Shown here piece after piece: positions 3,001 to 6,000 of a DNA stretch of 19,093 nucleotides. The position numbers are program-made. This DNA comes from Armatimonadota bacterium. Its GTDB lineage: Bacteria; Sysuimicrobiota; Sysuimicrobiia; Sysuimicrobiales; Humicultoraceae. The stretch covers positions 1-19,093 of the forward strand of contig JBBIJB010000033.1 in assembly GCA_037446215.1 (NCBI GenBank). The letters are read 5' to 3'. How positions within the stretch are numbered: the first letter of the stretch is position 1; every line of letters begins with the position of its first letter.

Positions 3001-6000
3001 CAGGTGAGGTCCCGGCCGAGCGTGTAGTCCTCGTACCTTCCATCGAGGGCCAGGACCATCGTCTCCGCCATGCAGGCCTCGCTGAGGCCCGGAGGGAAGC
3101 CGAAGTCGATCCCGAAGTCCGGCTCTCCCGGGACCTCTATCACGCCGCCGTCGAAGACCAGCACGTCATCTCGGCTCTCGTAGACCATCCTGGAGACGTT
3201 CCTTGGTCGGGCCACGTCGCACACGACCGCTCCGGGGTGCAGGTCCTCCGGCTCGATCAGCACGTCCGTCGCGGCGGAGACCGCGAGCAGCAGATCGGCC
3301 TGCCGCACCGCGGCATGCACGTCGGTGGTGACGTCCACGATCGCCCCTGTGGCGTCGCGGATCCGCCCTGCGAGCCCATTGAGTAGGTCCAGGCTGCGGG
3401 CCACGAGCCGGAGCGAGCCGACGTGCCTGGCAAGGATCTGGCTGCATACCGCACCGATCGACCCCGTCGCCCCGATGACGACCGCCCGCAACCCGGCCGG
3501 GTCCATCTCCATCTCACGGGCCGCCAGCAGGGCGCTCTCTACCGCGGCGGCCGCGGTGTAGCTGTTGCCGGTCGTGACCGGCAGCCGCAGCCGCTCGGCC
3601 ACGGTCACGCCGCGGTCCCCGATCACCTTGGTGAAGGCACCGAGCCCCATGATCCTCGCTCCCAGTGACTCCGCCAGGCGGCCGCACGCAACCAGCTTCC
3701 TGTAGACCGCCTCCGGCTCGGTTCTCAGGATCAGCCGCGAGGTCATCGGCAGGCCAATGAACCACCCCTCGGCGCGTGCCCCGGTGGGAGAGCGGACCCC
3801 TGTAATCCGGGAGGCGACCAGCGGGCTCATCTGGCCGCCGATCCACTCGAGGACGCGGTCCGGGATCTTCCGCGCTATCGGGAACTTCCGTACGAAGTCG
3901 CGCGCAACCAGGGGATGGACGACAAACGCGAAGCGCCTGGGTTCGTCGTGCACTGACGGCCTCCTATGCCGGATTCGACAACCTCTCCACGCGCGGGTGA
4001 AACCCGGCGCGCTGGAACCAACTGAGGTAGTCCTCCGGGGTCAGATCCTCGGGCCTGCGCCCGGAGAGCGCCACGAGGACTGCCTCAAGCACGTTGGTGG
4101 CGAATGAGCGGCCGTCCATCTCGGGCGTGGTGGTCACGAGCAGCTCCACCTTCCGGCGCCGCAGATCCTCTAGATCCGCACCGGTGATGGTGTTGGTAAG
4201 GATCGTCTTGCCGGAGAGATCGTCCGGCATGTATCTCTGGATCAGGTGGTAGTCGCCGGCGACGATCTCTGCCCACCGGTAGGCCCTGCCGTACCTGGGT
4301 GTCACCTGCTCCTGCTCCTTGCCTGTGGGATAGAGCCATGTGAACGGTCCGCGCGTCAGCACCGGTAGCAGGATGCCGGCGAGGATCTTTATTGTCACCA
4401 GCCCTCTCAGGCCAACCGGGACTCCGAGGCCGAACATCAGATCGCCGAAGACCACGTCCGCGCCGGCCTCCGTGAACGCCTGAGCCATCCCGTAGCGGTC
4501 CACGGAAGCCACCAGGAGCACCCTCCTGCCCCGGATGCGCACCCCCATCTCTTCGGGCAGCAGGGTCCTGACCAGGTAGCGCTCCCACCCCTGCTTGATG
4601 CCGGAGCCGTCCACGACCGGCGTCCGGAGACCTTGCACCGCGCGCACGGCATCCCTGATGTAGTACTTGCGGCTGCCGACGGTGAGCGCTAGGTTGATGC
4701 CCCCCAGCCCGATCGCGTCCACCTTCCCATCGTAGTCGCGAAGCCGCCTGCACAGCTCCCTGTAATCTCCACCGGTGCCGACTCGTTCGATTGTGAATGG
4801 CTGTCCCAACAGCTCGGTCTCGACCCTGTGGTCACCCCGGCTGGAGCCGAGGCTGACGCTTACCACGTGCCGTCTCCGGCTCACGGCTCGCTCACCTCCA
4901 GCAGGTCGCCTGCGATGATGCGCCTCAAGGTCCCATCTGCTTCTCGAAGCCGCAGCGCTCCATCTTGATCCACGCCGTCGGCGGTGCCTTCGAGCGCCGC
5001 CCCCGCGACTGCGATCCTGACCCTCTCGCCTCGCGTCAGGTCCCGGTCCGACCACGCCCTAATCAGGCGGAGGTCTGCGGCGCTCCACGCATCGTACCAG
5101 ACGGCCCACCGTGCCAGCAACGCCCGGAGCAGGAGCTCGACCGACACGGGACGGCCGGCGATACGGTGCAGCGAGCCGGCGCGGGCAGCAACCTCCGCCG
5201 GAAGATCGTCGGCCTCCACGTTCGCGTTGATGCCGATCCCGACCACCGCCGCCCCCGCCGCTGCCTCGATCAGGATGCCGGCCACCTTTCGCCCTGCCAC
5301 CAGCAGGTCGTTGGGCCAACGCACTCCCGGCGAGAGCCCTGCCACCTCCTCTATGGCCTCGGCCGCGGCCAAGGCCCCGGCCAGGCTCAGTAGGCCCCAG
5401 CCGTCATCCCTGACCGGCCTGAGCAGCAGTGAGCACCAGAGCCCGCCCGCGGGCGACGCCCACGGCCTCCCCATCCGACCCCGGCCCCGCGTCTGGCGCT
5501 CGGCCACCACCACCGCGCCCTCGCGGACGCCGGCCCGAGCCAGCGCACGCGCCAGGTCATTTGTCGATTCCAGGTCAACTACCCTCACCGTCGGGCAGCC
5601 GAAGCAGGTCTGGACGGCCGGTTTGATGGGTACGGTCATCTGCTCTGATCGGCCCTGGTCCGGAGCGGGAAGACGGTGGGCAGCATCGCCTGCATCTCTG
5701 AGATCAGCAGGTCGGGATCGTCCAGCCTGACAGAGGCGGCGTCTACCTGCAGCATGGGGCACAGGTCGAACCTCGCGACCCACTCCTCGTAGCGATCGTT
5801 CAGCTGGGCGAGGTAATCGAACGGGATCTGGCGCTCGTAGTCGCGCGACCTCATCATTATGCGATCCTGCATCAGCTCCACCGGGGCGCGCAGGTAGATC
5901 ACGAGGTCTGGAGGCCGCAGGAACTCCACCATGATCTTGAAAAGGTCATGGTAGCAGCGGAAGTCTCGCTCGTCCATCAGCCCCTGGAGATACAAGTTGC

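Follow-up and report, generated by a model that had tools for sequence, protein, structure and literature searches.

Two genera of Armatimonadota that have lost CoaX, CoaB and CoaC of coenzyme A synthesis but retain CoaD and CoaE

Two genera of environmental, uncultured bacteria, here called g1 and g3, have lost CoaX, CoaB and CoaC and keep CoaD and CoaE. As coenzyme A (CoA) synthesis is left without its first three steps and retains the last two, a late precursor is probably scavenged, by an uptake route that would be new for bacteria. The reading that we prefer, and to which we give about an even chance, is that g1 and g3, and probably also genome G021, cannot make CoA from pantothenate, take up 4′-phosphopantetheine and finish the pathway with CoaD and CoaE. 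The window from which the analysis started is the whole stretch from position 1 to 19,093 of contig JBBIJB010000033.1 (GCA_037446215.1, Armatimonadota bacterium), and the feature coordinates below refer to this contig. The comparison covered 94 genomes of the phylum, of which 25 form a wider clade and 69 lie outside it, and included eight g1 and six g3 genomes. All are bins of uncultured organisms; those of g1 and g3 have a completeness of 73–98%.

CoaX (PF03309) was found in none of the eight g1 and none of the six g3 genomes; outside the wider clade it was present in 61 of 69 genomes and missed in the other 8. CoaB (PF04127) was absent from all 14 g1 and g3 genomes and detected in all 14 controls, archaea among them; it was missed in 20 of the 69 genomes outside the clade. 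The CoaC family PF02441, also positive in 14 of 14 controls including archaea, gave a match in one of the 14 genomes only, G009, which we take from its N-terminus to be UbiX and not CoaC. When 19,207 six-frame open reading frames of genome G000 were searched with profiles of CoaX, split CoaB and fused CoaBC made within the phylum, the best E value was 0.17. The reported absence of a type I pantothenate kinase from five genomes was confirmed, the PRK family PF00485, to which this type belongs, being above its cut-off in 0 of 5 genomes and in 11 of 14 controls. For the type II enzyme, neither PF03630 nor NF009842 was above its cut-off in any of the five genomes (one NF009842 match, E 0.27) or in any control, so that this search again had no positive control. 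A survey of G000 with crude ASKHA motif patterns yielded four proteins, which on reading we take to be sugar kinases. A PanT-like transporter was missing from G000 as well. PanC was found in 0 of the 94 genomes and in 9 of 14 controls, and there is thus no de novo flux. The loss of CoaX, CoaB and CoaC in g1 and g3 is real.

The first-pass annotation had extended the absence of CoaX and CoaB to the genus g10. This part did not hold, because genome G023 of g10 (59% complete) carries a coaX fragment followed by a full coaBC. In genome G022 of the same genus the neighbouring ppa gene is missing too, which indicates that the region may be unassembled. We therefore dropped g10 as a negative genus; G021, in which one contig break falls inside the phosphate-transport genes, is likely negative and is the only g10 genome that looks like a loss. 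In G018 (g7) and G020 (g9), CoaX, CoaB and CoaC are all absent, but the contigs end at or near the relevant slot, which leaves a loss there unsure. The count of 11 of 11 genomes with CoaX given for the other genera of the family was too high: in the nine other genera it was 13 of 17, with the four misses in genomes that are 69–79% complete.

The earlier statement that CoaD and CoaE are kept was borne out. CoaD (TIGR01510) was matched in all 14 g1 and g3 genomes (partial in G029 and G006) and in 93 of the 94 genomes of the phylum, and CoaE (TIGR00152) in the same 14 of 14, split over two contigs in G032. In a PDB search the G000 CoaD matches a PPAT best (E 5e-44). Purifying selection acts on CoaD, with dN/dS values of 0.02–0.21 in eight pairs of genomes without the coaX-coaBC operon described below, compared with 0.08–0.12 in three pairs with it and 0.05 in the mixed pair G022-G023. 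The low values in the operon-less pairs indicate that the substrate of CoaD is still supplied. The pair G011-G014 from outside the clade (dN/dS 0.52) was left out, since the sequence from G011 does not resemble the others of the phylum. For CoaE, dN/dS was higher in g1 pairs (0.23–0.54, n = 5) than in operon-bearing pairs (0.10–0.22, n = 3). A demand for CoA is present: AcpS was found in five of five genomes and acetyl-CoA synthase of the Wood-Ljungdahl pathway in all four loss genomes tested, and fatty-acid synthesis genes are encoded.

The window itself was first regarded as the site of the loss. The features concerned are as follows.
4881..5639, minus strand: birA, biotin-protein ligase without DNA-binding domain (PF03099 and PF02237)
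4881..4884, minus strand: four-base overlap of the birA stop codon (4883-4881) with the GTG start codon of g00935 (4884-4882), from the sequence
3964..4884, minus strand: g00935, downstream flank; conserved protein that automatic annotation calls 'quinate 5-dehydrogenase family'

The birA product scored 155.5 bits with TIGR00121 (cut-off 83.1). The overlap of birA with g00935, as originally described, leaves no room for a gene between them. The g00935 gene was found in 90 of the 94 genomes; Pfam and NCBIfam searches gave no match, the Atlas clusters matched have no Pfam family (score 0.97–0.98), and we saw no sign of a role in CoA synthesis. In outgroup genomes the birA-g00935 junction is the insertion place of dmpA-(panT)-coaX: dmpA and coaX lie between the two genes in all eight outgroup loci with both sides assembled. 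The gene order reported for G039 (birA, DmpA-like peptidase, ECF S component, coaX, g00935) was seen again. The S component directly upstream of coaX in G039 had as sole PDB matches 4rfs_S (E 2.6e-6) and 6zg3_C, which we take to be PanT structures; being closest to solved PanT and adjoining a pantothenate kinase gene, it is a candidate ECF-PanT. In the wider clade, birA lies within 18–121 bases of g00935 in 24 of 24 loci, and the same junction is found in all seven clade genomes that carry coaX and coaBC elsewhere. The junction can therefore not serve as a mark or scar of the pathway loss, as had been argued from this locus. The native dmpA-panT-coaX block probably disappeared from the birA locus when the common ancestor of the wider clade lived, and birA is the upstream flank of this older, clade-wide loss.

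The coaX-coaBC operon of these seven genomes is situated away from birA, near a DEAD-box helicase gene, phosphate-transport genes and ppa. It derives from Dehalococcoidia and probably replaced the native genes. In 11 genomes of g1 and g3 (G000, G027, G030, G031, G032 and G004 to G009) the region from the helicase gene to ppa is assembled on one contig without coaX or coaBC. In G000 a distance of 10 bases separates the helicase gene from ppa (C11:25201/25212), and in G027 and G005 the genes follow one another as in G001 except that coaBC-coaX is missing, the gaps measuring about 130 and 170 bases. The contiguous synteny at this slot further backs the loss in g1 and g3. A search for gene remnants in the slot over 16 loci gave a single match with an E value of 0.95. 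The operon was lost at least two times, or else a clade member acquired it anew (AU p 1.6e-6). Two of the trees had 24 and 12 rows and another excluded G011 and G013 as too gappy; the supports are SH-aLRT values from a short search. A metagenome scan with the helicase gave, among the matches listed, distant helicases with a best-segment identity of at most 64% and no loci of the clade.

No importer was found; four candidates failed or were unspecific. Two neighbouring genes of the window were considered.
13617..14102, minus strand: ECF S component S1, candidate importer (PF07155 and PF12822)
14185..15744, minus strand: UshA-like 5′-nucleotidase / nucleotide pyrophosphatase with a signal-peptide-like N-terminus, adjoining S1 (PF02872 and PF00149)

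The UshA-like protein scored 246.8 bits with the UshA model, under the cut-off of 600, and could perhaps free 4′-phosphopantetheine from dephospho-CoA outside the cell. In g1 its gene stands at the S1 locus wherever the assembly spans this place (six of six loci); it is there in G021 too, and in none of the six from g3. S1 occurs in 40 of the 94 genomes, among them 6 of 8 in g1, 2 of 6 in g3 and 20 of 22 in f3, a family that keeps coaX. As G004, G006, G007 and G009 have no S1 and the coaX-bearing family f3 often does, the pair was rejected as a general importer.

The window also encodes kinases.
5636..6984, minus strand: two deoxynucleoside kinases (PF01712; PDB matches are deoxynucleoside kinases)

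They were absent from the five genomes searched, including G007 (a verified loss), G021 and G020, and were discarded as a general replacement kinase. A ribokinase gene that lies beside ppa in part of the loss genomes was rejected as well, since the copy tested, that of G030, passes the ribokinase cut-off and the gene is not at that place in G000, G027, G031, G005, G008 and G009. A motif survey of G000 with crude patterns, in which the proteins were named by our own reading, revealed no standout unassigned small P-loop, ASKHA, PfkB or GHMP kinase.

The main rival to an uptake of 4′-phosphopantetheine is an unrecognised pantetheine kinase. Pantetheine or a mixed disulfide would be imported via an ECF or peptide ABC transporter, and a non-homologous kinase would make 4′-phosphopantetheine for CoaD, a possibility that we consider unlikely though not remote. 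Its best candidates are an orphan PurM-fold kinase and S2, a second ECF S component, which occur together in G000, where the kinase gene (C52:12584-13504) lies a few kb from coaD. The PurM-fold protein is present in 83 of the 94 genomes of the phylum, all 14 of g1 and g3 among them, and matches the ThiL, SelD and HypE models, each below the cut-off; homologue, PDB and Atlas searches gave only 'AIR synthase family'. A longer S2 occupies precisely the place of the missing coaBC-coaX in G007 and lies beside arsC in G004, and EcfT was found in five of five loss genomes. Known carriers import unphosphorylated vitamers, for example TcyJKLMN of Bacillus subtilis (PMC11487621, in excerpt), and a bypass that existed beforehand would account for the repeated loss. 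However, both candidates also occur in genomes with the full pathway. In G001 the kinase gene adjoins thiamine genes, and in G042 it precedes a TPP riboswitch. S2 is likewise spread over the phylum near thiamine genes, was not found in G009, has an N-terminal half that is much alike in genomes with and without the loss, and is most similar to PDB 4hzu_S, presumably of the HmpT/PdxU2 type. As both are phylum-wide and near thiamine genes, we did not accept the pair as the answer and kept it only as the candidate of this rival explanation.

Replacement of PanK, CoaB and CoaC by three non-homologous enzymes, with pantothenate still as the starting point, would escape homology searches, and in Archaea the first steps of CoA synthesis are carried out by unrelated enzymes. 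We nevertheless regard it as very improbable, since two lineages or more would each have had to acquire three new enzymes, G000 has no PanT-like transporter either, and the universal detection of PF04127 and PF02441 in the controls, archaea included, leaves no substitute for CoaB or CoaC among them. Pantoate kinase and phosphopantothenate synthetase of the archaeal type would be of no use to cells that have no CoaBC. An import of dephospho-CoA or whole CoA, in which case CoaD would only recycle phosphopantetheine from the turnover of CoA or acyl carrier protein, has published parallels: Rickettsia and Chlamydia are predicted to take up dephospho-CoA (PMC8721197, in excerpt), a model of JCVI-syn3A has whole CoA enter by an ECF transporter, and CoA is a requirement of M. 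mycoides (both in excerpts of PMC6609329), and a 'CoA uptake' class comprises 25 gut genomes (PMC6593275, in excerpt). It appears rather improbable here, because CoaD is retained throughout g1 and g3 with dN/dS values like those of operon-bearing relatives, whereas the predicted dephospho-CoA importers keep DPCK only, as far as the excerpts of PMC8721197 go. Finally, the genes might be absent through incomplete bins or lie on unbinned contigs; genes are indeed missed in the outside genomes counted above, and the gap in G022 is of such a kind. Against this stand three families at 0 of 14, where 10 genomes reach a completeness of 91% or more, the empty slot on a single contig in 11 genomes and the recovery of CoaD and CoaE from all 14 of the same bins, and we give an artefact hardly any probability.

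Mycoplasma mycoides belongs to the Spiroplasma group. All species of this group keep PPAT and DPCK (PMC8721197, in excerpt), yet M. mycoides needs whole CoA and not its precursors (PMC6609329, in excerpt), which means that the gene set does not fix the imported compound. The CoaD-plus-CoaE-only set itself is already known: according to excerpts of PMC8721197, most of 62 Mycoplasma species have PPAT and DPCK only, and phosphopantetheine scavenging was proposed for such species within the groups Spiroplasma and Hominis, which likewise have neither PanK nor CoaBC. The same excerpts cite excretion of phosphopantetheine by E. coli and its transporter-free passage in Drosophila cells. Mycoplasmas are host-dependent and have reduced genomes, whereas the genomes studied here measure 1.5–3.7 Mb as assembled (G000 with 68% GC) and carry the genes of AcpS, fatty-acid synthesis and acetyl-CoA synthase, and the loss apparently came after a foreign operon had taken the place of the native genes, and occurred repeatedly. 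The pantetheine shunt variant Apn (PanK, CoaD and CoaE; 91 gut genomes; PMC6593275, in excerpt) also lacks CoaBC and is entered by a CoA breakdown product, but requires a pantothenate kinase, of which we found no type I or III, type II being undetected in a search without a passing control. Rickettsia, Chlamydia and some mycoplasmas with DPCK only, and JCVI-syn3A, similarly obtain a late phosphorylated compound from outside without the early enzymes (PMC8721197 and PMC6609329, in excerpts); the DPCK-only organisms in addition lack CoaD, which is kept here under purifying selection. In the non-parasitic B. subtilis, cysteinopantetheine is taken up by TcyJKLMN and CoaBC is bypassed by this pantetheine derivative, but the full pathway is present, the salvage is optional and use of the compound depends on CoaA (PMC11487621, in excerpt), a type I PanK that is absent here. 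E. coli is unable to re-import 4′-phosphopantetheine, and no mechanism of its uptake there is named in a review of 2025 (PMC12570885).

On the preferred reading, uptake of 4′-phosphopantetheine, events may have run as follows. In a phylum that as a whole has no pantothenate synthetase, the ancestor of the 25-genome clade would have lost the native dmpA-panT-coaX block and its separate coaB and coaC genes, and gained the Dehalococcoidia operon near ppa, the helicase gene and the phosphate-transport genes; g1 and g3 would then have dropped this operon separately. External 4′-phosphopantetheine, supplied by neighbours or by extracellular cleavage of CoA or dephospho-CoA, would be converted to CoA by CoaD and CoaE. 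Somewhat more tentatively, we propose that these Wood-Ljungdahl bacteria depend on 4′-phosphopantetheine from their neighbours and possess either an uptake system for this compound, which would be the first in bacteria, or a pantetheine kinase of a new class. If this system or kinase is older than the losses, the foreign coaX-coaBC operon could be dropped repeatedly.

The weight of the finding is limited in that mycoplasmas already provide an example of this gene set, what was found is an absence, and the search brought up no gene for the mechanism. It would place a dependence like that of mycoplasmas in bacteria that are not reduced and, judging from genome content and the published biology of the phylum, are probably free-living and non-parasitic, and which encode a CoA-dependent enzyme of carbon fixation. 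The source of 4′-phosphopantetheine in mycoplasmas with the same gene set was called an open question (PMC8721197, in excerpt), and the 2025 review asks what role the excreted compound has in communities (PMC12570885). Since close relatives keep the operon, a comparative search for the importer or kinase is tractable. For cultivation, the prediction is that pantothenate will be insufficient for g1 and g3 and that CoA, pantethine or phosphopantetheine will be required. If true, the phosphopantetheine excreted by E. coli would gain an ecological consumer, and a missing medium component would be named for an uncultured family.

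The genome under study, G000, is a bin of 2.16 Mb with 68% GC and 91% completeness, and was compared within a phylum sample of 94 genomes from one order and seven families. The minus strand of the window carries, in order:
tilS, ftsH, an isochorismatase-family hydrolase, a 5'-nucleotidase, an ECF S component and a 160-aa protein
hutH, hutU, an ASCH protein, a formiminotransferase, hutI and two deoxynucleoside kinases
birA, g00935, an acyl-ACP-reductase-like protein, greA and a last gene which we take to be clpC

The stop of birA and the start of g00935 overlap at 4881-4884. In a relative, G039, a peptidase, an S component and coaX lie in this order between birA and g00935; the first-pass annotation had described both arrangements correctly. 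The G039 S component matched only 4rfs_S and 6zg3_C in the PDB, presumably ECF-PanT structures, and the peptidase, which we take to be DmpA-like, matched none of the NCBIfam models searched. We examined 35 loci, of which three were cut by contig ends. birA directly precedes g00935 in all 24 loci of the genera g1, g2, g3, g7, g10, g11 and g12, whereas peptidase and coaX lie between them in 8/8 outgroup loci with both sides assembled. Together with g9, these genera make up a single 25-genome clade (SH-aLRT 100), in whose ancestor the native dmpA-panT-coaX block was lost. The window junction had been taken as the scar of pathway loss; this does not hold, because seven of the 24 genomes (G001-G003, G023-G026) share it and carry coaX and fused coaBC elsewhere. 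Being common to the whole clade, it is uninformative on which members make CoA today.

A DmpA/S58-like peptidase accompanies panT-coaX in 24 of the 30 native coaX loci (L011-L040; in G039, L077:7798-8748) and was lost together with them. To our knowledge, type III pantothenate kinase (PanK) cannot use pantetheine; in a phylum with this enzyme and without PanC, the peptidase may therefore be a pantetheine hydrolase, a role not reported among the best 10 literature matches. The gene g00935 belongs to no family and occurs in 90/94 genomes; its pairing with the acyl-ACP-reductase/PigE-N-like protein that follows is conserved (window 2847-4884).

CoaX (PF03309) was found in 68/94 genomes, but in none of the eight g1 and six g3 genomes, and CoaB (PF04127) in 56/94, again in none of these 14. 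The CoaC domain (PF02441) was matched in 74/94 genomes, including one of the 14, G009, whose protein reads as UbiX from its sequence. CoaD was present in 93/94 genomes and CoaE in 30/34 genomes of the family, and the stated retention of both was matched in all 14 (CoaD partial in two). PF00485 gave no match over the cut-off in five genomes searched, nor did either of two type II PanK models, for which there was no positive control. Among all six-frame open reading frames of G000, none scored below E 0.17 with profiles made from 35 CoaX and 24 split CoaB sequences of the phylum and from 87 fused CoaBC sequences, most of these from other phyla. Pantothenate synthetase was found in 0/94 genomes (9/14 controls detected), so that the whole phylum needs pantothenate or a later compound. 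Outside the clade, CoaX was missed in 8/69 and CoaB in 20/69 genomes, so single absences mean little, and the absence counts include kin genomes, which are not independent. Counts and trees include the unpublished G025 and G017, on which alone no conclusion hangs. The absence of CoaX, CoaB and CoaC in g1 and g3 is real, and better backed, at another locus, than the first-pass annotation knew; its extension to g10 as a whole fails, since G023 carries coaX-coaBC and G022 is uninformative.

In five further genomes (G091, G092, G052, G073, G019; 91-96% complete) CoaX and a CoaC-type domain were matched without CoaB, and genus g29 has this CoaC domain inside open frames of ~400 codons; further lineages may have lost or replaced CoaB. 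G093 (family f7, 89% complete), with CoaD, no CoaX or CoaB match and a PF02441 match of only UbiX strength, is a possible independent case, an unsure one as the contig with its g00935 begins at this gene.

The other locus is the slot between a DEAD-box helicase gene and ppa. Its order in G001, with names in part our assumption, is helicase, phosphate permease, DUF47, coaBC, coaX, arsC, ppa; in G025 and G026 coaBC directly follows the helicase. In 11 genomes helicase to ppa lies on one contig without coaX or coaBC:
Empty, fully spanned slot in g1 (not spanned in the remaining three genomes): G000, G027, G030, G031, G032
Empty, fully spanned slot in g3: G004-G009

G027 and G005 keep the exact G001 order, with ~130 and ~170 bases in place of 2.4 kb, and in G000 10 bases separate the end of the helicase gene (C11:25201) from the start of ppa (25212). 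G021, with a contig break inside the phosphate operon, is probably also a loss. G022 is uninformative because ppa is missing too; the operon of its sister G023 lies on a contig of 3.7 kb, which may have been misbinned. The status of G018 and G020 is unsure.

The arsC-like gene adjoining ppa probably encodes a selenoprotein arsenate reductase, with an in-frame TGA at the expected catalytic cysteine in 3/3 sequences inspected:
L063:~11456-11857 (G001)
L227:~14159-14593 (G027)
L233:~3064-3465 (G005)

Outside the phylum, the fused CoaBC is most similar to sequences from Dehalococcoidia, at ≤62% identity. In a tree with 40 of the outside sequences, the seven clade CoaBC formed one group (SH-aLRT 100) nested in Chloroflexota, with g2 branching first, matching the species tree. 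The five clade CoaX were nested in Dehalococcoidia, apart from native CoaX, and 44/79 outside loci have coaX upstream of coaBC. The simplest reading is that the clade's ancestor acquired the operon in a single transfer. The operon-bearing G024 groups with g3, and a tree uniting g1 and g3 against it was rejected (AU p 1.6e-6; 12 rows, three changes of state), which implies either separate losses in g1 and g3 or a regain by G024 from within the clade; the tests used here cannot give the direction of events. The history of the absence has two steps, and repeated loss suggests a pre-existing bypass.

AcpS was present in all five genomes tested, and coaD of G000 lies beside genes presumed to be plsX, fabH, fabD, fabG, acpP and fabF. 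Acetyl-CoA synthase was found in G000, G031, G007 and G008 and was absent from G001. CoaD can be aligned with solved PPATs. By a simple counting method on short genes, dN/dS of CoaD was 0.02-0.21 in eight operon-less pairs (one with the unsure G022) and 0.08-0.12 in three operon pairs, and that of CoaE 0.13-0.54 without versus 0.10-0.22 with the operon, somewhat higher in g1. CoA is still required in g1 and g3 and, judging from sequence, CoaD is still functional. The CoaD of G011 (L089, G011:C39) differs from the rest of the phylum, possibly through a misbinned contig or a replacement.

The CoaD+CoaE-only gene set is already known from mycoplasmas: the excerpted text of PMC8721197 gives only PPAT and DPCK, the same set as in g1 and g3, for most of 62 Mycoplasma species and terms their phosphopantetheine source an open question. 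Excerpts of PMC6593275 list 91 genomes under a pantetheine variant that includes PanK and 25 in a class termed 'CoA uptake'; its table holds no CoaD+CoaE class, and the 25 genomes may include this pattern. According to part of PMC12570885, no uptake mechanism for 4'-phosphopantetheine is known in E. coli. Within Sysuimicrobiota/CSP1-3, the main text of PMC11604079 reports acetyl-CoA synthase for Humicultoraceae only, so that G000, which encodes this enzyme, probably belongs to that family; neither 'pantothenate' nor 'coenzyme A' occurs in the main texts of this paper and PMC11962464. The open literature, which leaves most subscription papers outside its scope, held no report of the set in a non-parasitic bacterium; nor did we find it published for environmental bacteria that encode acetyl-CoA synthase and have repeatedly lost a foreign operon.

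With CoaB and CoaC missing, the only possible entry points to the pathway are pantetheine, given a kinase for it, 4'-phosphopantetheine, and later compounds. Four candidates were tested, and none alone explains the pattern. The window S component as a general importer is disfavoured by its occurrence in 40/94 genomes yet only 2/6 of g3; the UshA-like nucleotidase beside it could cleave dephospho-CoA outside the cell in g1. A second S component is listed here:
G000 C52:13573-14226, ECF S component in 60/94 genomes; occupies the empty slot in G007

This protein resembles 4hzu_S most and differs little between genomes with and without the loss. The orphan PurM-fold kinase that partners it occurs in 83/94 genomes, near thiamine genes, and the deoxynucleoside kinases are absent from G007. 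The PurM-fold kinase and the HmpT-like S component (L241:12584-14226, G000 C52), near coaD and often beside thiamine genes, are a possible undescribed vitamin-salvage step. In G001, a 380-aa protein (L181:1429-2571) combines a soluble N-terminal domain with an ECF S-component domain; no PanT-like match was found in the examined loci of this coaX-coaBC-bearing genome. In g1 and G021, the ECF S component, the UshA-like nucleotidase and the isochorismatase-family hydrolase form a gene run (window 13617-16404), possibly for nucleotide-cofactor (NAD or CoA) scavenging; in outgroups the window-type S component still adjoins the hydrolase.

Entry at pantetheine would require an unrecognised pantetheine kinase and is rather unlikely. 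More doubtful still is a route in which dephospho-CoA or CoA is imported and CoaD serves for recycling. The first-pass annotation had proposed uptake of 4'-phosphopantetheine or a later intermediate, which is also the best reading here, and 4'-phosphopantetheine is singled out because no known kinase was found and CoaD is conserved. We give entry at this compound in g1 and g3 about an even chance: 4'-phosphopantetheine would be taken up from outside, and CoaD and CoaE would then finish CoA.
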